From Fibrobacterales bacterium (GTDB taxonomy: Bacteria; Fibrobacterota; Fibrobacteria; Fibrobacterales; JAOPTW01), in assembly GCA_051532055.1 (NCBI GenBank), contig JAOPTX010000108.1, positions 1 to 10,767 on the forward strand: a DNA stretch of 10,767 nucleotides, given 5' to 3'. The position numbers and the translations under genes are program-made. The notes under the pieces were generated by a model. The model was given only the letters and a program-made list of their open reading frames with translations. It was not told the DNA's origin and ran no database searches. Positions 109 to 10,767 of this stretch are shown in pieces. Every line of letters starts with the position of its first letter. Position 1 is the first letter of the stretch.

Positions 109-984
109 TTAACTTTGTTTTGTATTGTGCTTTTTTAGGTAACTCGATGACATTTCTGAATATTTTTCTCTCAGTAAACGTGTAATTAGTCCATTTGTAC
201 CGAAATTATACTTATCAATTGAGCTAATAGGCACCACCCCCCGAATAGAACTAGTAAGAAATGATTCTTCAGCCTGCTCAAGGAACGCTGGATGGATGTG
301 TTTTTCTGATATAGGAATATTAAGTTCCTTTGCGGCCTTTAAGATTTTCTGCCTTGTGATACCAGGCAATATATCTGCATCAAGAGGTGGTGTAAAGAGA
401 ACTCCATCTGAGACACAAAAAAATGATGACGTCGTCATTTCAGCAATCTCACCCTTCTCACTCAGAAAAATCCCTTCATAAGCGCCCTTTTTATCAGCCT
501 CATGCTTCGCCATAATATTCGCTAAATAATTTGTTGTTTTAATATGTCCATCAATACCGGACGCAGATGAGCGCTTTACAGACGTTATTGCCACAGCAAC
601 CCCATCAGTATAGAGTGATTCATTGAGCCATGTAATGGGTGACGCCGTCACTATTACTGTTGGGCAAATTGCCGGATCGATACTAAGCCCCGGTGATACC
701 CCTCGAGTGATCGTAATGCGAACCGCCGCCTCTGATAATTGACTTTTTTCACAGAGTTGCTCTATTATATATTTAAAAAAAGATTCATCATAAGGAAGAT
801 CAATCAATAGTTTTTTGGCCGATGACGCTAGGCGATTCCAGTGGTCAGAAAAAAATTCAGGCACTCCATCTATCGCTTTTACCGTTTCAAATAAACCATC
901 GCCAAGAATTAAACCACGATCAAAAATTGAAACGGTCGCTTTACTTGACTCTACTATTTCACCATTTACAAATGCATAATTCAT
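109..984 (-). CDS. pabC: Aminotransferase class IV (fold-type IV PLP) protein, probable 4-amino-4-deoxychorismate lyase
   Basis: Motifs DRGLILGDGLFET, HWNRL, VRITITRG, HIKTTNY (PLP lysine), EMTTSSFF, ILPGITR and EESFLTSS. Lies downstream of a PabB-like gene on the same strand. Start placed at ATG 984 (MNYAFVNG) rather than ORF-track 1002. A branched-chain or D-amino-acid transaminase function cannot be excluded. Confidence 0.75.
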   Translation of the reverse strand: MNYAFVNGEIVESSKATVSIFDRGLILGDGLFETVKAIDGVPEFFSDHWNRLASSAKKLLIDLPYDESFFKYIIEQLCEKSQLSEAAVRITITRGVSPGLSIDPAICPTVIVTASPITWLNESLYTDGVAVAITSVKRSSASGIDGHIKTTNYLANIMAKHEADKKGAYEGIFLSEKGEIAEMTTSSFFCVSDGVLFTPPLDADILPGITRQKILKAAKELNIPISEKHIHPAFLEQAEESFLTSSIRGVVPISSIDKYNFGTNGLITRLLREKYSEMSSSYLKKHNTKQS

Positions 985-1262
985 AATAATAAATGGTAAC
1001 AAACAAAAAGTCTATCTGCAAACAATTTGCACACTCTCCCCAATATTTATCCCAAGAATTTTTGTACCAAAACACATGCTATATCGATTATTTAATTGAG
1101 TATCTTCCTATCAATCTCTCAAAAGCCCGAACACTCTTTCTAAACAATATTCAAAAGATGAACCAATTACACTGCACCCACAAAGAAAAGTCGAGCCGAG
1201 AAGAACCTACAAATTAAGGTTCGCTAACCCACCTCATGCATATTTTCGTGGGGCAACGTAGT

Positions 1263-2570
1263 CTACCTCTGCCGAGTGAGCATTTTCATCCAAGAAGCCG
1301 CTTTGTGCATCGTCTCTTCGTACTCTTTTTCGGGAATACTGTCAGAAACTATCCCTGCCCCGAAATGCATCTCACCCCTATCATTTTCAACAAGAAGTGT
1401 TCGAATCAAAATATTCGTTTCAGCCCCGCCATTATTATCAAAAAAACCAAGGGAGCCGGTGTAAAATTTTCGATCAGCATTTTCAAGTGCATCAATTATT
1501 TCAATTGAACGAATTTTGGGGGCACCAGTTATAGTGCCTCCTGGAAAGAGATGTTGTAACATTTCTGCCGCTGAGACTTCTGGCTTTGCAATACCAGTAA
1601 CCGTCGAAACTATGTGCATCACATCTTTATAGAGTTCGCAATCCATAAACTTTTCAACAATTACAGAACCTATTTCGCAAAACCGGCCAAGATCATTGCG
1701 CTCGAGATCAACGAGCATTAGGTGCTCTGCTTTCTCTTTTTCGGATATGAAAAGTTCCTTTTTAAGAGCCTCCTCATCCTCAGCATTTTCACCCCTTCTC
1801 CGAGTACCCGCGATTGGTTTTGTAGTAACCTTTCGCCCTGACACACCGTACAATAATTCAGGTGAATTACTCACCACCGTAAACTCAGGAGTAAAATAAT
1901 AAGAGCTATAAGGTGAAGGGTTTTGCGACCTTATTTTGCTAAAAAGATCAAGGGGGGACCCTGTAAAATCAAACTGGATTGGGTGCGCGAGATTTGCCTG
2001 AAAAACATCACCTGCATGAATATATTCAACAGTCTCTTCTACATATTTTTCATACAATTTCTTACCGGCTGATTGTTTAAAATTATCGGCAGACCACCCA
2101 TGGTCACTCTCATAGGGTACTGTCCACAATTCTTCAAAATCACCATAATTTACAATTGCATCATTAACCGTTGAGCAATAAAAGGTCTCTTCTGTGTGAT
2201 CATAAATAAAGATGCAGTCATACAGGCCAATATGATAATCTGGCGTTGAAGTAAGGTACTCCTTTTTCCTTGGATATGACTCAAATTCAGCGCAAAGGTT
2301 ATAGCCTATAAGGCCTACAACACCCGATTCAAACGCGTACTTTTGGTTATAACTCATATTTTTTTGTGTAAGAAGGCCATCTATTTTTTCATAAATTTTT
2401 CGATCACTATCATTGGCTTTACCTTCAATAATTTTCGAAGGGTTAAAGCCAAAGTAAGTTACCCCAGCCCCACCCCAATTATCAAAATAGAACCCATTCT
2501 TTTCACTCTGACTCATTCGCTGAAAGAGTTTCCATGGGTCATTTATTGGTGGGCATATTGTATGAAGCAT
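1263..2570 (-). CDS. pabB: Aminodeoxychorismate synthase component I (anthranilate synthase component I / MST family)
   Basis: Motifs GDVFQANL, NPSPY, SPEL, PIAGTRRRG, AEHLMLVDLERNDLGR, VMHIVS, FPGGTITGAPK, YTGSLG, NILIRT and GAGIV. FPGGTITG and the neighbouring class IV PLP gene favour PabB over TrpE. Confidence 0.8.
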   Translation of the reverse strand: MLHTICPPINDPWKLFQRMSQSEKNGFYFDNWGGAGVTYFGFNPSKIIEGKANDSDRKIYEKIDGLLTQKNMSYNQKYAFESGVVGLIGYNLCAEFESYPRKKEYLTSTPDYHIGLYDCIFIYDHTEETFYCSTVNDAIVNYGDFEELWTVPYESDHGWSADNFKQSAGKKLYEKYVEETVEYIHAGDVFQANLAHPIQFDFTGSPLDLFSKIRSQNPSPYSSYYFTPEFTVVSNSPELLYGVSGRKVTTKPIAGTRRRGENAEDEEALKKELFISEKEKAEHLMLVDLERNDLGRFCEIGSVIVEKFMDCELYKDVMHIVSTVTGIAKPEVSAAEMLQHLFPGGTITGAPKIRSIEIIDALENADRKFYTGSLGFFDNNGGAETNILIRTLLVENDRGEMHFGAGIVSDSIPEKEYEETMHKAASWMKMLTRQR

Positions 2571-2609
2571 ACCTAAAAGGTAGAAAAATTTTAATGAATT
2601 TTGCTGAGC

Positions 2610-5600
2610 CTATTTACGCGAATTCCTAAGAGGATGCACATTAGAATTGTCTACTGAGGGGTCTTTAGGTATATCTATATGAAACCCAAATTCGAGGCGG
2701 GTCGGCTGAAAAGATGACGCAAGGCCAATATCGATAGTCGAAAGGACTGAACCATCAGGTAAAAGAGGGTCGAGCGCTTTAGAATAGCGAGCATAAAGCT
2801 GAAAGGGGTAGTGATAGAAAAGCTTTTGTGTAAAGCGAAAGGCAAAGCCCCATGAACGATAAAAGTCCCTGTATTCGCCCTCTGTGAGATAATTATAATA
2901 TTTACCATCCCACGCCTGTCCTGTTTGAAAAAAAGCATCCACATACAGGTCTTTTAAATGGACCACCCAAAAGCTTTTGTGAATATTTTTAATGAGCGCC
3001 CATTGGTGCTCTATAGAAAAGAAGAGTGTATTTTCTCCGAGAATCGTAAGGTCCTCTTCGGTAGTATAGGGGTAGCCACTTATTGAGACCCCTTGTTTGT
3101 AAAAGTTGTCGAGACCAATAGTGGTGTCGCTATCAGGTTTTTTAAATTGCCAGTCCAACAATGCACTCGTTGATACCGTAGCCACAAACCGAGAATCACC
3201 TAAAAAGGGATTTGGGAGCGAGATAAATCCATTAACTCCTGTTTCCATCAATTGATAATTACTCATTTTTTGCTGCTTTACGTTGCTCTCAGAAACAGTA
3301 AATGAGTTACTAAAATCACCACCTGGCCTAAAGAGTTCTGAGTCGGTATAACTAACCCCACCACTCAAACCAATTCCTGAAGCCGCGAGACCTTCAGCAT
3401 CAGAACTCGGTGCCGAAGCCATGTAACCTGCTTGCAAAGAGTAGACCCATTGATTATTAAACTCCCAAATACCACCTGCGTCATTATAAAAATTGAACGT
3501 CGACCACGAATAGCCACTTCCCAGCTGAACAAAATCACCTTCTTTAAAGAGAGAGTATCGCGCTGAGCTCGTGAAAGCATTTTGCTTTACCGCATAAGGA
3601 GAACGATTAAATTGAGTGAAACCACCGCCAGCATCTACGGTTACTGTGTCGATATACTCCCGATTACTTTGCATTGCTGCGAGATCGAGGGTTATAGGAA
3701 ATGAACGATTTGTCCACTGAATCATCATGTCTGCATTCACTTCTGGGTTAATCCCATAATCTAAGCTTATAGGGTTTGCAAATTTATCCACCTGCATAAA
3801 GAGTAGGGCCATAAACTCGTTTTTCCCTAAGGGATCATTTATTAAGGCACTCAACCCTAATTTATGGACACGCTCAGTTTTACTCGCATCAATATTCTTC
3901 GGTGACTCCTCATAAAAATAGAGTGGGGAAATAATAGTTCTACGAGGTAGAGACGAGTACTCAAACTGCTTGGACTTAAAGCTTTTAGGGATCACATCCT
4001 TCTTAATTTCATTATTCGACACCTCAAGTTCCGATAACAAAGACTCACTTACATCAAACATACGATCCGACAAAGGCATAGCATGAAGAGAGAAACCATT
4101 TATGTCATACTGGGTATAAAATAGGTCTTGAGTTTTATGATTTATTGTTGGCGTAAACGCACCCCCAAGCACATTCGTCAGTTTTATATACTTTTTACTG
4201 TGGATATCATAGGTATACAAATTAAAAATGGTAGGACTTTCTTTACGGCCCACTAAAGTATTTGCACTGACAACCAGAGTAGAATCATTAAGCCACAGAG
4301 GGTCGCGCACATCTAACGCAGGAATGTTTACATTTGCAATCTGAACGCCTTCCTTGTCTATTACTATCACAGAACGCCTTTCACCATTATATATCCCTAA
4401 AACAATTTTTGTTCCATCGGGTGAATATTGAGGAGTGTAGAGATTATGGCCACCACGTATTTGCCCCTCTAAACGAGAACTATCTTGAAATGAGAAAATG
4501 ACCCTGGGCTCATCTATAGGCCTAAACTGGTCATCAAGCTTAAGAGACTTTAAGGAAAAAGAGGTTGATGCAAGATCTCTCGCAACATAAAGCAAGCTCG
4601 AACCATCGGTAGCAAACATTGGATTAATGGCATTTTGAAGCCAAGTAACTTCAGTATCACCCTTATCTTCACACTTCTGAGAACCCTGACATGTTATACG
4701 GATATCAAAATAACGTACACCATCACGATCACGATTCTTTGCACTCACATAGGCAATATAATCAATCGTATCTTTACTATATACGGAGAAACCTTTACTC
4801 CAAACAGGGTCTTCAACTGGCATCAATAGCTCTTTGTCTTTGAGTACCGATTCAAAATCACGTTCTACCACACCCTCTTTTAATGAATCCTGAGGTACAT
4901 AGAGTAGTGTACCTCTAAATGAAGTTTCACTCTCGCCCGCAACAACATAGAGGTCACCATTAAGGGTTACCTGTGGATGATCATAATATATTCTATCTGT
5001 GGTATATGCCTCTCCTTCAACCTCTTCTCCAATAAGATCGGACTGTAGTTGTGCCCGCCTTAATTCAAAGTCGAGCCAATCGCTATAGAGTTTCTCTTGA
5101 TTGACCCCGAGAACCTTTTGCAGTGTCGCGGAAAAAGTCGCCCGGTACCAAGTACCATTTTCTTCCCACAACTTTGGGATAGATGCATCGCCATAGCGAT
5201 GGGCTATATATCTTACTAGTGAAAACCCTTGGGTATAGGGCCCTTGCTCCACCTCCAAGCCATGAGTGGTAAAACTATTCATTTTTTCTATGGGAAGTAC
5301 TTTTTTATTCAGAGAGGCAACACGCATGATCATATCTCGATGAGAATCCCACGAATCAAAACCCATCCGTTCAGACTCATATTGCGCAGTTCCTTCTGCA
5401 AACCAATGCGGTTGGAGAAAATTAGGGAGTACCATGCTAAAGTTTTTCTGAACTCTATTATCATAATAGTCCGTAGAAAGTAGATGCGCAGTATACATAA
5501 AGGGTACCGTTTTAACACCTGATTGTATAGAAATAATATGCGCAAACTCGTGCGTTACAACGTCAGCGAGCCAATTATGTGTTGATCTTAATTTAATCCC

Positions 5601-5909
5601 CCAGTCCGTTAACCATATATTAATGTGTGATTGTAAAAAATTTGCACTTCCATTTGAGTACAATGCGTTATTAAGAGTAAAGTCCATGTGACTAGGGTCA
5701 TAAGAAGGATATCGTATAGATATTGAGTCATACATTTCTTCCGCTATACCTGCAGCCTGTTCCGCATAATCTACTAGATACGCTTCATAATGAAAGTCAA
5801 AATGATCCGTTCTCGATGAACGCCACTTTTTATGAGACTCATTTCCAAAAAATGGTAATGCATAACTCATCGAGATAAGAACAGAGAGAAGTGTAATATA
5901 TTTAATCAT
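2610..5909 (-). CDS. Large exported/outer-membrane protein: signal peptide + gluzincin (peptidase MA-like) domain + TolB/WD40-like beta-propeller + probable Omp85-like C-terminal beta-barrel
   Basis: Hydrophobic signal peptide from ATG 5909 (MIKYITLLSVLISMSYA). HEFAH (5538-5552) is followed by WFAEGTAQY. PD40-like repeats include NPMFATDGSSLLY and TPQYSPDGTKIV. The C-terminal region has alternating aromatic beta-strands (YVDAFFQTGQAW, YRSWGFAFRF, RLEFGFHI). Confidence 0.7.
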   Translation of the reverse strand: MIKYITLLSVLISMSYALPFFGNESHKKWRSSRTDHFDFHYEAYLVDYAEQAAGIAEEMYDSISIRYPSYDPSHMDFTLNNALYSNGSANFLQSHINIWLTDWGIKLRSTHNWLADVVTHEFAHIISIQSGVKTVPFMYTAHLLSTDYYDNRVQKNFSMVLPNFLQPHWFAEGTAQYESERMGFDSWDSHRDMIMRVASLNKKVLPIEKMNSFTTHGLEVEQGPYTQGFSLVRYIAHRYGDASIPKLWEENGTWYRATFSATLQKVLGVNQEKLYSDWLDFELRRAQLQSDLIGEEVEGEAYTTDRIYYDHPQVTLNGDLYVVAGESETSFRGTLLYVPQDSLKEGVVERDFESVLKDKELLMPVEDPVWSKGFSVYSKDTIDYIAYVSAKNRDRDGVRYFDIRITCQGSQKCEDKGDTEVTWLQNAINPMFATDGSSLLYVARDLASTSFSLKSLKLDDQFRPIDEPRVIFSFQDSSRLEGQIRGGHNLYTPQYSPDGTKIVLGIYNGERRSVIVIDKEGVQIANVNIPALDVRDPLWLNDSTLVVSANTLVGRKESPTIFNLYTYDIHSKKYIKLTNVLGGAFTPTINHKTQDLFYTQYDINGFSLHAMPLSDRMFDVSESLLSELEVSNNEIKKDVIPKSFKSKQFEYSSLPRRTIISPLYFYEESPKNIDASKTERVHKLGLSALINDPLGKNEFMALLFMQVDKFANPISLDYGINPEVNADMMIQWTNRSFPITLDLAAMQSNREYIDTVTVDAGGGFTQFNRSPYAVKQNAFTSSARYSLFKEGDFVQLGSGYSWSTFNFYNDAGGIWEFNNQWVYSLQAGYMASAPSSDAEGLAASGIGLSGGVSYTDSELFRPGGDFSNSFTVSESNVKQQKMSNYQLMETGVNGFISLPNPFLGDSRFVATVSTSALLDWQFKKPDSDTTIGLDNFYKQGVSISGYPYTTEEDLTILGENTLFFSIEHQWALIKNIHKSFWVVHLKDLYVDAFFQTGQAWDGKYYNYLTEGEYRDFYRSWGFAFRFTQKLFYHYPFQLYARYSKALDPLLPDGSVLSTIDIGLASSFQPTRLEFGFHIDIPKDPSVDNSNVHPLRNSRK

Positions 5910-6102
5910 ATTGAGTAAAATAGAAAAATCAGGCTTTAAGAGGAGGAATAAACAACGCACCAATCCCTCCCTACACTGCCCTTTGCCCATGAGAGATACA
6001 TCCATTATTTAGAAAGGTACATCTGAAGAGCCTTCTAATGAAAGCAACTAAGTAACAGCAAAATAAATGACTATATTATTACCATACATTTTATGAGGTA
6101 CC

Positions 6103-7137
6103 ATGTTTAAGCTTTTTATCGCCCCCAATAACCCGTCTCTCTTTTATTCTGGTCGGTTTGATTTGTCCGACCCCAACAAAGCTATACATTCATGGCCAGG
6201 AAGTTCAGTATTTGTACGATTTTATGGAGAGAATGTATCCGCACTACTAAAAAGTTATTGCACTAAGGGCGATAGGCCGACAGGTAACTATTATGACGTA
6301 ATCGTTGATGGCCAAGTTGTAAATACTATACAATCATCGGTTCACAAAAAAAAGATTTCCCTCGCAGAAGGGCTCACTACCTCCGAACACACCTTGGAAC
6401 TCTATCGACGCACAGAATCTTTTTCTGGCTCTACTGATTTTTTAGGATTTTTCCTCTCTTCAAACGAACGTCAACCAGAAACTTTACCACATCCTAAACC
6501 ACAACGAGGCATTGAATTCTATGGTGATTCAATAACTTGCGGCTATGGCAATGAAGGCTCTGGCACATCCTACTCAGCAAAACACTCTAATAATAATATG
6601 GCCTATCCTGCAATTACCTGCCGATTACTCAATGCTGACTATCGGGCAATTGCATTTTCTGGAGAAGGAGTTTTTAGGCGTCACGACGGTTCTACTCAAT
6701 CATCATTACCAAAAATGTATCACAAAACTTATTATCACTCTGATACACACTGGGACTTTAACCACTGGAAACCAAACTGCGTCTGCATTAATCTCGGTAC
6801 TAACGATTTCATTGCAGGAGTTTCAAACAATAAGGAATTTATTGATCACTATATTGAATTTGTAGAAAAAATAATCGGTCATTACCCTTCCACTCCTATT
6901 ATACTAGTCTTTGGTCCTGATTACACCAAATATGACAATAGCGGACAACGAGAATCGGTACAAGAAGTAGTATCGCATTTTCAACAACAACAGCTTCCAC
7001 TCTACTTTTTTGAATTCACAACCTTAATTGATGGACTTACCGGTATTTTTGACCACCCCAATAATAAACAACATGCGAAAGCAGCTGAAGAACTCAGCAC
7101 TTACATTGCAGAAACACTTAATTGGACTCAATCTTAA
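6103..7137 (+). CDS. SGNH/GDSL hydrolase, carbohydrate esterase family 2-like (acetylxylan esterase-like)
   Basis: N-terminal CE2 jelly-roll-type segment (YSGRF...SWPGS...YDVIVDG...HTLELYRRTE), block I IEFYGDSITCGYG, AFSGEG, block III INLGTND and C-terminal HP. GAGG lies just upstream of the ATG. Confidence 0.85.
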   Translation: MFKLFIAPNNPSLFYSGRFDLSDPNKAIHSWPGSSVFVRFYGENVSALLKSYCTKGDRPTGNYYDVIVDGQVVNTIQSSVHKKKISLAEGLTTSEHTLELYRRTESFSGSTDFLGFFLSSNERQPETLPHPKPQRGIEFYGDSITCGYGNEGSGTSYSAKHSNNNMAYPAITCRLLNADYRAIAFSGEGVFRRHDGSTQSSLPKMYHKTYYHSDTHWDFNHWKPNCVCINLGTNDFIAGVSNNKEFIDHYIEFVEKIIGHYPSTPIILVFGPDYTKYDNSGQRESVQEVVSHFQQQQLPLYFFEFTTLIDGLTGIFDHPNNKQHAKAAEELSTYIAETLNWTQS

Positions 7138-7171
7138 ACCCTCTGACCCATTCTTCTAGCAGTAAAAGCAT

Positions 7172-7903
7172 ATGAAAAATACTCTTTTAATCATTTATAG
7201 CCACATTGAAACGACACTTCAATTAAACTCTGACCCCGAAGACAAAGAACAATTTGAACGGTATCTTAAAAATGTTGTTACCTGCCTGGGAGTACGATCT
7301 CCTGCCATAGAGATCCTATTTAAACAGGAATACCTTGCTAAAGTTAAACCCCTTGCGTTCAATGATCAACTATCTTTAGGGTGCGCCCTAGTAAAAAGTG
7401 ATTACTTTGAGATGAAGAAGTTTGGCATTCTTTTATTACACAAAAATATCAAACATATATCAATTTCAGATCTGAGCCTCTTCTCTAAACTTTTTGCAAA
7501 GCACATTTATGATTGGGCTACTTGTGACACATTCTCTAGTAAAGTATTAACACGACTTATAAAAAAAGACAACACCTTTGCCCTCCCTATTGCTCAATGG
7601 AAAAATTCTTCACATTTATGGCAACAACGTGCAGCATGTATATCATTTGTCGGTCTGGGACGCCATGGAAACCACAATGAGATGATACTTTCGATTTGCA
7701 CCCAAGTGATTAAAAATAGTGAACGTTTTGCCCAATTGGGTGTTGGCTGGGTGATAAGGGAGCTATCAGTTGCCAACATAGAACTCGCACTTACCTTTAT
7801 TCAAAGTCATTACTCCCAATTTTCAAGAGAAGGTTTACGGTACGCAATTGAAAAACTAGAGCCTACTCTACGAAAAAACATTCTTAAGGGAATATTTAAA
7901 TAA
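7172..7903 (+). CDS. DNA alkylation repair protein (AlkD-like HEAT-repeat family)
   Basis: Motifs YLK...LGVRSP, DWATCD, W...HLWQQRAA, ERFAQLGVGWVIRE and SREGLRYAIEKL are typical of the DNA_alkylation/AlkD-like family. Confidence 0.85.
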   Translation: MKNTLLIIYSHIETTLQLNSDPEDKEQFERYLKNVVTCLGVRSPAIEILFKQEYLAKVKPLAFNDQLSLGCALVKSDYFEMKKFGILLLHKNIKHISISDLSLFSKLFAKHIYDWATCDTFSSKVLTRLIKKDNTFALPIAQWKNSSHLWQQRAACISFVGLGRHGNHNEMILSICTQVIKNSERFAQLGVGWVIRELSVANIELALTFIQSHYSQFSREGLRYAIEKLEPTLRKNILKGIFK

Positions 7904-7905
7904 CA

Positions 7906-9237
7906 TCACAATGTAATTTTCGCAACATCAAGTGGTGACTTAATTCCGCCTTGAGAAGAGTAAAGTACATGGGTATAAATCTGGGTTGTTCTAATATCTT
8001 TGTGACCAAGTAATTCTTGTATCGTGCGAATATCATATCCCGCTTCTAACATATGAGTCGCAAAACTATGTCGAAAAGTGTGAATAGAAACTTTTTTATC
8101 AATGTCTATTTTCTTAACTGTAGCTGCAAGCTTTTTTTGAATAGTCGTTTCATGTATATACGCACGATAGGGAAAATCAATTTGATTATGAATCTTTATT
8201 TCATCAGATGGGAACATCCACTGCCACTTAAATTCATACGAGGCACCTTTAAATTTTCTAGCAAGGGCTTGAGGGAGCACGGTCCGCCCATAACCACGCG
8301 ACACATCGCCATCATGCACATCTCGCAGCTTATTAATATGCTTTTTTAATGGCTCTCGTATTGCATCAGCAAGAACTGTATGACGATCTTTGTCACCTTT
8401 ACCTGAACGCACTATGATAAAATTGTTTTTAAAATCGATATCTTTGATCCTCAGTTTTTGGCACTCGTTCAATCGTAAACCAGCACTATACAGCAACATC
8501 AAAAACAACTTTTTCTCTCCACTAAATTCCTCAATAATCAAAAAAACCTCATCACGGCTGAGAACCGTGGGAATTTTTCTATTCACTTTAGCCCGTACGA
8601 CTGACTCTAATCCATGCATTTCCATACCCAACACATTCCTAAAAAGGAAAAGAAGGGATGCGTACGCCTGGTTTTGTGTCGATGCCGCCACACTTTTTTC
8701 AGAAGCAAGATAACTTAAATAATTCCGCACATCCATCATTTCAACATCGAACGGAGATGCTAATTTACACCAATACATAAATCGCCGAATCCATGAGACA
8801 TATACTTTTTCAGTTTTATATGACATATGCCGAAGATGAATCGTTCGGACAACTTCATGAATGGCCTCTTCCCAATTCATCTCTTTTAAACGTGCACCAT
8901 CAAAATCACCACCCATGATAAGGCTTGCATTCGTTACCAAGGATGTTCGCTCGATCATTTTGTCATCATTCAATTGCTCACTATGATTTTGTATTATAAA
9001 ACGTAAAATATTATATACAGCCTTTAAAACATCACTAGGTAACCTTTTTTTCTCCTTCAAGAAAATGATGTAATCTTTAACAGAGTCCTCATCATGTCCA
9101 TCAATCCCTCTTTTTATTCCATAGTCCAAATAGTATCGAATCCATTTTGAATCATTAGAATCATAATTCACTAACACTCCATGACGAACCAAAGATTGTT
9201 TGAAAATGGTTAAAAATGCCTTATTTATATTAATCAT
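7906..9237 (-). CDS. intI: Integron integrase (tyrosine recombinase), long form with N-terminal extension
   Basis: SAM-like domain ([15 protein letters not shown]...VAASTQNQA), [10 protein letters not shown] and catalytic motifs [39 protein letters not shown] and TTQIYTH. Carries the IntI-specific insertion LPQALARKF...WQWMFPS. A strong SD (minus strand AGAAGGGAGG) supports ATG 9237, giving 443 aa. Adjacent to an attC array. Confidence 0.96.
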
Positions 9238-9446
9238 GTTAATATCCTCCCTTCTATATAACAAGCGCAAATAATATCTCCATCATGCAACCGAGGTATT
9301 CTAGTTGGTTTATTAGCCTGTTTTCCACACTTCTATCTGTATAGGGTTTTTGTATTACTGTTTTTTGATACAAGTTAGACGACAATGACAGGGGAAATGT
9401 TACATAGGGTTGGCAATTTTTATATTTTCTGCATATTAAAGGATTC

Positions 9447-9465
9447 TTTATAATAAGAGTTATGT
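9447..9465 (+). other. attI: Putative attI simple site; recombination point G9459/T9460
   Basis: GTTATGTGT (9459-9467) is the exact reverse complement of ACACATAAC (9823-9831) at the end of cassette 1, as expected for an integrated cassette. No attC hairpin precedes it. A degenerate L box TTTATAA (9447-9453) and a 5-bp spacer lie upstream. Confidence 0.75.
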
Positions 9466-9478
9466 GTCTAGATTATCT

Positions 9479-9805
9479 ATGAATGAAAAAGTATCGATAT
9501 TGCAGGATGGTATAGAATATCCCGAACACCAAGAGTTTATTATTGGTAATCGTACTGGGATTCAAAGCCTTAAAGATGCTTGTGAAAAAGCGCTTGAGCA
9601 TGACATTTGTGATGATCAAGACTTAGGTGATTATCTTGGGGTTAAAATTCTTGAAGATGACAGCTTCTATAATGATAATTTGAAAAAGCCAGAGGACTCT
9701 TCGTTAATATATTGGTTTTTAAACCTGGGATTCTGGGGTATTATCCTTCTTTTATTAGGCTTTTGTTTTCTTGTTGGATTAGGAACCATTATAAGCTGGA
9801 TGTAG
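9479..9805 (+). CDS. Cassette 1 gene (cassette 9460-9940): hypothetical protein, acidic N-terminal domain + C-terminal membrane anchor
   Basis: The ORF fills the cassette and ends just before attC1. The C-terminus is hydrophobic (FLNLGFWGIILLLLGFCFLVGLGTIISWM). The start is either ATG 9479 or GTG 9464; no clear SD. Confidence 0.8.
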   Translation: MNEKVSILQDGIEYPEHQEFIIGNRTGIQSLKDACEKALEHDICDDQDLGDYLGVKILEDDSFYNDNLKKPEDSSLIYWFLNLGFWGIILLLLGFCFLVGLGTIISWM

Positions 9806-9824
9806 TATTTCGTGCCATATTCAC

Positions 9825-9946
9825 ACATAACAAAACGTTGGAGACGGCAAGCAAGTATTAGACAAAAAACAAATTAACTCGCATTCGCTCAAACAATAAT
9901 TTATTTTTCATCTAACACTCACTTCCGCTCAACTCAACCGTTATGT
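9825..9946 (+). repeat. attC: attC site 1 (122 bp)
   Basis: R'' ACATAAC 9825-9831, then a 5-nt spacer. GTT[G]GAG[A]CGG[C]AAG pairs with CTT-CCG-CTC-AAC (three extrahelical bases). A 25-bp stem (9852-9876/9897-9921) encloses a 20-nt loop. A 6-nt spacer precedes R' GTTATGT 9940-9946. Confidence 0.93.
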
Positions 9947-9973
9947 GGTTTGCTGCTTTTCGGTAAAGGTTAC

Positions 9974-10204
9974 ATGAAAACATTTTTGACATTATCAGGA
10001 ATATCATTTATCGCTACTGTGATCATTGTGACATTAATATCATATGTGTTCTTCTTAGAGATTCACTCACACGAAATACATCTTGAAGGCGGCAATCTTG
10101 ATTGGGAATTTATACTAACTAAAATTGCGGTATGGTTCATAGGTTTCTTTGTTTCTATTAAAATTATACTTTGGACATTAATCAAAATGAAAAAGATGAT
10201 TTAG
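9974..10204 (+). CDS. Cassette 2 gene (cassette 9941-10353): small two-TM membrane protein of unknown function
   Basis: SD-like AAAGGT precedes ATG 9974 (76 aa). Two hydrophobic segments flank EIHSHEIHLEGGNLD, and the C-terminus is basic. The cassette ends are complementary: GTTATGTGGT 9940-9949 / ACCACATAAC 10235-10244. Confidence 0.8.
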   Translation: MKTFLTLSGISFIATVIIVTLISYVFFLEIHSHEIHLEGGNLDWEFILTKIAVWFIGFFVSIKIILWTLIKMKKMI

Positions 10205-10237
10205 CCGTTGGTAAATTTATTGAAGCATTAAACCACC

Positions 10238-10359
10238 ACATAACAAATCGTTGGAGACGGCAAGCAAGCATTAGTCAAAAAACAAATTAGCTCGCTTTCG
10301 CTCAAACAATAATTTATTTTTAGCCTAACACTCACTTCCGCTCAACTCAACCGTTATAT
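10238..10359 (+). repeat. attC: attC site 2 (122 bp)
   Basis: Gapless match to attC1 at 113/122 positions with the same R''/L''/L'/R' architecture. R' is GTTATAT 10353-10359. Confidence 0.93.
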
Positions 10360-10418
10360 TGCTATTCGAAGTAATAAGTATCGCAAAGCTACCGGGCACA
10401 CCATAAGAGGATAGTTAT

Positions 10419-10736
10419 TTGAAAATATATTTGCTCATTGGCTTCACATTTTTTGGAGCAGTTGGAATCAGTGTATATTGGTGGATGGTTAACAGGTATC
10501 AACCCAAACGCTCAATTATTGAGTGGGCCAAGAAAAACAACTATAGGGTTGTTAAGCTATCACCACTAGCGCCTTATTTGTCAAAATTTTATGATGATGT
10601 CATGTCTAACAGACTTGCATATGAAATATACTTCGATAATGGTGACCGAACCCAAAGAAAAGTTGTTTTAGTCGGCGGTAAATTTAGCGGTGGATTAAAT
10701 ACTAGTGTTGAAGTAATAGACTTTAAAGACAAGTGA
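10419..10736 (+). CDS. Cassette 3 gene (cassette starts 10354): hypothetical protein with N-terminal TM helix
   Basis: SD AAGAGGA precedes TTG 10419. An N-terminal hydrophobic helix is followed by a small soluble domain. The cassette ends are complementary: GTTATATTGC 10353-10362 / GCAATATAAC 10742-10751. Confidence 0.82.
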   Translation: MKIYLLIGFTFFGAVGISVYWWMVNRYQPKRSIIEWAKKNNYRVVKLSPLAPYLSKFYDDVMSNRLAYEIYFDNGDRTQRKVVLVGGKFSGGLNTSVEVIDFKDK

Positions 10737-10744
10737 TACACGCA

Positions 10745-10767
10745 ATATAACATCTATATGTCCCCCC
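10745..10767 (+). repeat. attC: Start of attC site 3 (truncated by window end)
   Basis: R'' ATATAAC 10745-10751 lies 8 nt after the stop codon and is complementary over 10 bp to the cassette 3 start. The remainder is not visible. Confidence 0.6.

Follow-up and report, generated by a model that had tools for sequence, protein, structure and literature searches.

The gene at positions 7906 to 9237 on the minus strand of the window, by which we mean the whole 10,767-nucleotide stretch of DNA analyzed here, is an intact integron integrase gene (intI) of an ordinary chromosomal integron, and sequence comparison identifies its 443-residue product as a divergent member of a widespread, little-described long variant of IntI. 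The N-terminal extension of this variant is very probably homologous to the core-binding fold and would descend, with the same high likelihood, from one old duplication common to the long-IntI lineage.

The identity of the integrase is clearly defined. The integron integrase model TIGR02249 matches residues 126-437 with 371.8 bits (cut-off 265), and the VchIntIA structure 2a3v aligns almost without gaps over residues 133-437 (E=2.6e-69), spanning the IntI-specific insertion of the catalytic domain (helix I2), which is present. The catalytic set is complete (R255, K280, H386, R389, H412 and Y421), following the R-K-H-R-H/W-Y residue set as it appears in the part of PMC2095811 consulted, and no other gene in the genome exceeds the IntI cut-off. 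From the N-terminus, all on the minus strand, the protein comprises an extra core-binding-like (SAM4-like) domain (residues 1-85, more closely about 6-85; 8983 to 9237), a linker predicted to be disordered (residues 86-119, with pLDDT <50 over 86-113; 8881 to 8982), the canonical core-binding domain (residues 120-205, beginning at Met120 in MNWEE; 8623 to 8880) and the catalytic domain with its IntI-specific insertion (7909 to 8592; PF00589, 128 bits). The canonical core-binding domain matches PF13495 over residues 128-207 with 91.4 bits. A preliminary description of this DNA had reported a duplicated domain in an extension of ~120 residues; the duplicated part stands, although it covers only ~85 residues, the rest being the predicted disordered linker.

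Our results show that intI heads a real array formed by attI, two complete attC sites and three cassettes, all read here on the plus strand. The attI simple site lies at 9447 to 9465, and its crossover is inferred between G9459 and T9460 because similarity to the closest relative's locus (L001) stops right after the GTT at 9459-9461; the attI core GTTATGT is the complement of the inverse core that opens attC1. A 14-nucleotide block at 9392 to 9405, identical in L001 and with GTTACAT 60 nucleotides upstream of the crossover, is a candidate accessory site or cassette-promoter -35 element. Cassette 1 (9460 to 9940) carries an ORF at 9464-9805 (113 residues, no Pfam family), cassette 2 (9941 to 10353) an ORF at 9950-10204 and cassette 3 (10354 to 10767) an ORF at 10419-10736; the attC of the latter begins at about 10742 and is cut by the contig end, its inverse core (10742-10751) being complementary to the core at 10353-10362. 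The two complete sites, attC1 (9824 to 9946, ~123 nucleotides) and attC2 (10237 to 10359), are 93% identical. The bottom strand of attC1 folds at -20.9 kcal/mol (z=-6.1), and for attC2 the bottom strand gives z=-4.6 and the top strand z=-1.0. Throughout the genome, 14 attC-like sequences were found on 7 contigs, two of them in the window.

The twelve attC-like sequences away from intI, on contigs C30, C31, C32, C74, C130 and C157, represent array fragments or CALINs. Contigs covering cassette 2 (window 9918-10320) show ~1.8x the flanking depth, which hints weakly at a second copy of this cassette. Just past attI, a contig from another study (window 9407-9470) diverges, a weak hint of a different first cassette. 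Several long-IntI loci have the TAAT-N4-GTT spacing in common with the window, and short direct repeats in tandem lie ahead of the probable attI crossover in L088, L089 (three copies), L087 and L091. Rfam gave no match in the window, and a promoter-like site in the linker-coding DNA (8960-8987, plus strand) was discarded as being at chance level, with 7 such sites found for 4.8 expected. Genes for a CE2/GDSL esterase and for DNA alkylation repair flank intI here and in L001, the latter gene being convergent with intI, with the two stops 2 nucleotides apart. The remaining window (109-7903) contains aminotransferase class IV and chorismate-binding (PabC/PabB-like) genes, together with a gene for a 1131-residue protein with weak peptidase-MA and beta-propeller matches.

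The extension is probably translated, as the strong Shine-Dalgarno sequence and a dN/dS of 0.08 favor the long start over Met120. The open reading frame runs from ATG 9237, as the preliminary description had proposed for a 443-residue protein with a supported start (its residue numbers follow a 454-residue ORF from TTG 9270), and GGAGG stands at 9246 to 9250 on the minus strand, 8 nucleotides before that ATG. With a generic anti-Shine-Dalgarno sequence, the duplex energy is -11.3 kcal/mol at ATG 9237 and -3.1 at the internal methionine at 8880, which had been named as the start that would speak against a long protein. In L001, the start is kept as GTG with GAGG at the equivalent place (-5.8 versus -3.0 kcal/mol). 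Compared with L001, dN/dS is 0.08 for the extra domain (bootstrap 0.035-0.18), 0.057 for the catalytic domain and 0.14 for the linker, itself conserved as well; these are rough estimates from one genome pair with dS >1 for the two domain comparisons. In line with this notion, among 31 loci of the phylum (L073 and L108 omitted), a start supported at <= -5 kcal/mol lies ahead of the extra domain in 24 and ahead of the canonical domain in 6. Additionally, a contig from a second study is identical to the window over 9008-9247, with zero differences. That the extension is an untranslated open frame and Met120 the true start is extremely improbable: the database call P0003 for this gene does begin there (324 residues), leaving an IntI of normal length, but the Shine-Dalgarno strength, the start position conserved in L001, the full-length call P0002, the dN/dS value and the family-wide pattern of supported starts all stand against it. 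A same-sample RNA run, of which four pieces could be placed, none on intI, is uninformative on expression.

Several results support assigning the extension to the core-binding (SAM4) fold: the substitution score (p~0.001), profiles built with the query held out, a search with a language model and a predicted structure of four helices. The ten residue pairs at offset 117 listed in the preliminary description do exist, giving 10 identities in 49 positions; at least 10 identities in some 49-residue window are, however, reached by 15.8% of 2000 shuffled extensions (p=0.16), and the raw count was dropped as sole evidence of homology. The ungapped BLOSUM62 score is 43, with its best diagonal precisely at offset 117; 0.1% of shuffles score as high, and 0.35% do so for the gapped score of the extension against the canonical domain. 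With a profile built without the query, the extension scores 11.5 bits and beats all 2000 shuffles (best 9.6); with a profile of short IntI only it scores 10.7 bits versus 8.4 for the best of 2000 shuffles, and with a third held-out profile 14.5 versus 9.9, the margins being small. A five-sequence sub-profile (29.7 bits for the query) was rejected as circular, having been chosen on the query's own motif. An ESM Atlas feature search with residues 1-115 placed a PF13495 cluster first (0.95, 178 of 256 features), a score that is uncalibrated for protein parts, and a search by the extension alone returned one relative among 29 candidates.

In this regard, the expected pair of Phage_int_SAM_4 (PF13495) hits is absent in the query itself, whose extra domain scores 12.6 bits (E=0.18, cut-off 27), but is found in other family members. 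The extra domain of L001 scores 16.2 bits and that of another member 42.2 bits, 15 of 16 aligned extra domains match PF13495 at E<=1 (best 4e-12), and the family profile of extra domains matches that of canonical domains with an HH probability of 98.0 (E=1.6e-13).

AlphaFold predicts four helices in the extra domain (6-18, 28-43, 50-62/64 and 67/68-85/89), with lengths that mirror the four helices of the canonical domain, and the same helices arise from an alignment of just three close relatives (pLDDT 67.5). Structural searches with this model are less discriminating. Foldseek ranked 2a3v first (prob 0.87, E=0.34, TM 0.50, rmsd 5.6), with no match at E<=0.001; in VIA-align, the best hit was an unrelated NAB2 domain (Z 7.1), and unrelated helical bundles ranked above XerA (Z 5.4, rmsd 4.8, 78 aligned), so that recombinases were not singled out. 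When the extra domain (1-90) and the core (118-443) were modeled as a complex, the score was 0.00 and the partner fold uncertain, which weighs neither way.

The extra domain extends well beyond this gene. A similar N-terminal domain is present in 36 of the 119 classified full-length database matches, and the extra-domain profile retrieves 556 clusters (50% identity) at E<=1e-10 and 2560 at 1e-3, sets that may include canonical cross-hits. Among the best 150 of the 2560, 74 combine the extra and canonical domains, 41 these two and the catalytic domain, 3 have three SAM-like segments, 3 join the extra domain to a catalytic fragment and 29 show the extra domain only. These last are short and mostly truncation- or frameshift-like, and no standalone extra domain was found in that best 150. 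Across the family, the linker has a median length of 23 residues (range 9-109). Of the 296 genomes in the phylum, 55 contain an IntI match (E<=1e-70) and 52 are hit by the extra-domain profile, which includes the query and cross-hits. The extra domain occurs in 32 of 37 distinct IntI-like ORFs of the phylum, counting only best-scoring loci (L072, L119 and L135 excluded, L073 included); L001 is mislabelled there as being without the extra domain because its canonical domain is absent. Long IntI forms, which the preliminary description mentioned for some environmental lineages, are a widespread class that was reported in 2008.

The phylogenies are compatible with a single old duplication followed by losses. 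For 130 domains of ~85 residues, the tree separates all 65 extra domains, the query's among them, from all 65 canonical domains with a split support of 0.992, placement within the extra-domain clade being weak (0.5); the best pairwise partner of the query's extra domain is that of L104. In a tree of 157 catalytic domains, a split (0.86) places all 69 long forms on the same side as 10 others, one of which is L001, which keeps the extra domain, and the long and short labels change 6 times, compared with at least 43 in 500 shuffles. Both are unrooted FastTree reconstructions from a biased sample. A tandem duplication of the protein's own domain, as first described, gives way here to an old, inherited one, in view of the 65/65 split and the wide distribution of the long class. 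A recent duplication was also rejected on scores, since the protein's own canonical domain scores 43 against the extension whereas extra domains of other proteins reach up to 72 and their canonical domains 69.

The comparison of both domains across the family points to how the copy has diverged. Among 151 canonical domains, T142, Y146, W149 and S186-T187-Q188-N189-Q190-A191 are conserved at 86-100% (T142 at 99%, S186-T187-Q188-N189 at 86-95%), polar motifs that we take, from tyrosine recombinase structures, to face DNA. In 215 extra domains, the Y and W are retained in 88% and 99%, respectively, but S-T-Q-N is replaced by a second motif (W 88%, Q 94%, V/I, x, Q 97%, A 98%), and the segment equivalent to 136-144 is mostly variable. 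This W-Q-V-x-Q-A is kept in 182 of 216 domains. The query lacks the signature Y-x-x-W ... W-Q-V-x-Q-A: W32 and the core hydrophobics are kept, whereas the Y, the W and both Q are replaced, with a register uncertain by one residue in the last helix. By this comparison it is an eroded, divergent member of the extra-domain family. Mean pairwise identity is 28% for the extra domain and 44% for the canonical one, and over 119 paired domains the mean net charge is +0.7 +/- 3.0 versus +5.2 +/- 2.7, the query itself having +3 in the extra and +2 in its own canonical domain. Ten basic residues are invariant between the query and its close relatives, in a set of three (K13, R18, K31, R34, K42, R43, K54, K61, K64 and K72), along with five acidic ones.

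Natural variants of the long form were also found. In L001 (4001-5089), an in-frame deletion of 84 codons, between short similar sequences, removes the canonical domain; what is left is the extra domain with the linker and a catalytic domain that is otherwise intact and keeps its catalytic residues. G001 shows this gap too and was not taken as an independent case. The deletion is more simply read as decay, because no attC repeat family was found beside the L001 intI. P0183 and P0164 carry three PF13495 stretches before the catalytic domain, and P0226 is an IntI with an enlarged SAM-like segment in that place. P0077 and P0089 (413-421 residues) were rejected as members, their different common N-terminal extension of ~100 residues having no Pfam match; we presume it to be HARP-like. 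The genome under study encodes a second IntI-derived recombinase of 401 residues (G000:C44, L073:1189-2394, plus strand). Its extra domain is typical (55.8 bits) and its canonical domain degenerate; Gln replaces the second catalytic His, and the protein ends just past the catalytic Tyr. It sits between apparent housekeeping genes, with no attC-like match on its contig, and is possibly a domesticated paralogue. A 405-codon frame in G001 also matches the extra-domain profile. In one genus, L110 (G274:C1) and G269:C96 each have two adjacent tandem intI genes, at least one of them long.

What the extra domain does can be approached from the established mechanism of IntI core recombination, as in VchIntIA. 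The canonical core-binding and catalytic domains would clamp attI or attC as in that enzyme, and the extra domain, ~30 residues away on a predicted floppy tether, may touch the DNA backbone outside the core site, either at the attI flank or on the partner DNA. Such a contact could raise avidity or hold the synapse, and the domain would then fill the role that the DR1/DR2 sites or host accessory factors have in short-IntI systems. We tentatively favor this reading, in which the extra domain serves as an auxiliary grip on DNA, tethered and of low specificity, since the query's ten invariant basic residues and its net charge of +3 support it. That the domain is a second clamp for core sites is unlikely, because the relevant canonical motifs are lost. 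The contacts between IntI and DNA are almost wholly non-specific phosphate contacts according to the portion of PMC2727003 consulted, and the consulted text of PMC8946536 states that the attI1 DRs and host factors aid attI x attC recombination and that IntIA appears to need host factors. Against an auxiliary grip stand the near-neutral charge of the family, the replacement of the canonical polar motifs and a k-mer search of 33 long-IntI upstream regions, which gave no common accessory motif beyond AT-rich and kin-shared (attI-like) words. The same replacement and the lack of a common upstream motif other than the attI-like kin word weaken the earlier proposal that the domain binds accessory attI sites, as far as binding in the canonical manner is concerned.

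A different and somewhat doubtful reading holds that the extra domain is a protein-contact module that docks on a neighboring protomer, the enzyme's own core or a host factor; that it thereby tunes, and probably damps, synapse assembly where the intI promoter has no SOS box is doubtful to the same degree. The near-neutral family charge, together with the distinct W-Q-V-x-Q-A at the position of the polar motif, is consistent with protein contact, yet the W-Q motif is lost in the query lineage, where purifying selection is nevertheless seen. As for damping, a candidate SOS box matching the Fibrobacter-type LexA consensus TGCNC-N4-GNGCA lies upstream of this genome's recA (0 mismatches) and lexA (1 mismatch), at L143:1407-1420 and L141:2257-2270, and was not found upstream of intI in the window or in L001. 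This pattern agrees with the protein-contact reading, although single matches to this consensus are at chance level per locus. In further agreement, the part of PMC3108266 consulted reports a correlation between lost LexA control and integrase inactivation and mentions that other dampening adaptations have been proposed; the hints of array shuffling speak against damping.

Less probable still, and in our judgment unlikely, is that the extra domain represents a tolerated, largely dispensable appendage, kept folded to avoid harm and occasionally lost. In this regard, IntI1 activity is unaffected by a large N-terminal MBP tag (PMC2095811, in the part consulted), ten proteins without a detected extra domain lie within the long-form side of the catalytic tree (L001, among them, keeping one), and the family motif is eroded in the query lineage, in a domain whose identity is the lower of the two. 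However, distant lineages still have the domain, with its W, Q and A positions nearly invariant, its dN/dS is near that of the catalytic domain, most ORFs of the phylum keep it, and a one-step switch to the internal methionine, although possible, was not taken.

A more radical proposal would give the long IntI two interchangeable or specialized DNA-gripping heads, the extra one being able to take over as the clamp or to hold folded single-stranded attC, which we regard as quite improbable. If true, the long forms would make up a mechanistic class of their own among IntI, with the accessory factor built in, and the sister-genome protein, which retains the extra head alone, would be a natural domain swap that works. 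One such version is very unlikely: the two domains would divide labor or swap, so that the extra one could act as the clamp, for example on folded single-stranded attC, and the canonical one would serve attI. That L001 retains only the extra domain next to intact catalytic residues, and that proteins with three SAM4-like domains exist, would accord with it, but the L001 deletion is a single case that may reflect recent inactivation or an assembly error, no repeated attC family lies near its intI, and the polar DNA-facing motifs are absent from the extra domain.

In the work examined, integron biochemistry and structures rest on two-domain enzymes (IntI1 and VchIntIA), whereas among the integrases retrieved from this phylum three domains are the norm, and such forms are also frequent in other groups. 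The long form bears on how IntI can act on attI as a double strand as well as on folded attC, and on the need of certain enzymes for host accessory factors. The present copy, the sister deletion variant and the three-domain forms offer a natural comparison set. Gene callers can mask the extra domain through a start at the internal methionine, as in P0003. As the preliminary description had also noted, no functional study of the extra domain was found in the open-access literature.

The protein described here resembles VchIntIA/IntI4 (2a3v) and IntI1 in having a core-binding domain, a catalytic domain that carries the IntI insertion (structural alignment, ~38% identity), the same catalytic residues, a divergent intI-attI-cassette layout and attC hairpins of ~123 nucleotides, but those enzymes are without its N-terminal addition of ~119 residues, that is, the extra domain plus the linker. 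Integrases of the lambda Int type also have an extra N-terminal domain that could reach accessory DNA (PMC8138268, in the part consulted). However, their arm-binding domain consists of three beta strands and a helix, as described in the consulted part of the preprint of Smyshlyaev et al., whereas that of the query is predicted to be all-helical and core-binding-like, with no arm-type sites shown. Long forms were described by Nemergut et al. (2008), whose "clade 15" of deltaproteobacterial IntI is ~120 residues longer, which they ascribe to one "gene fusion", and was suggested to be functional (PMC2426708). The added part is not named in the text consulted; here it is identified in the query as core-binding-like. 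From length and taxonomy, clade 15 would correspond to the present class, with the query as a divergent member from another phylum. Finally, Smyshlyaev et al. (2021) describe, in the part of PMC8138268 consulted, two sequential core-binding domains in RitA, absent in all other tyrosine recombinases. RitA belongs to a different subgroup (RIT elements), and the tandem core-binding domains predicted throughout the long IntI class contradict their restriction to it.
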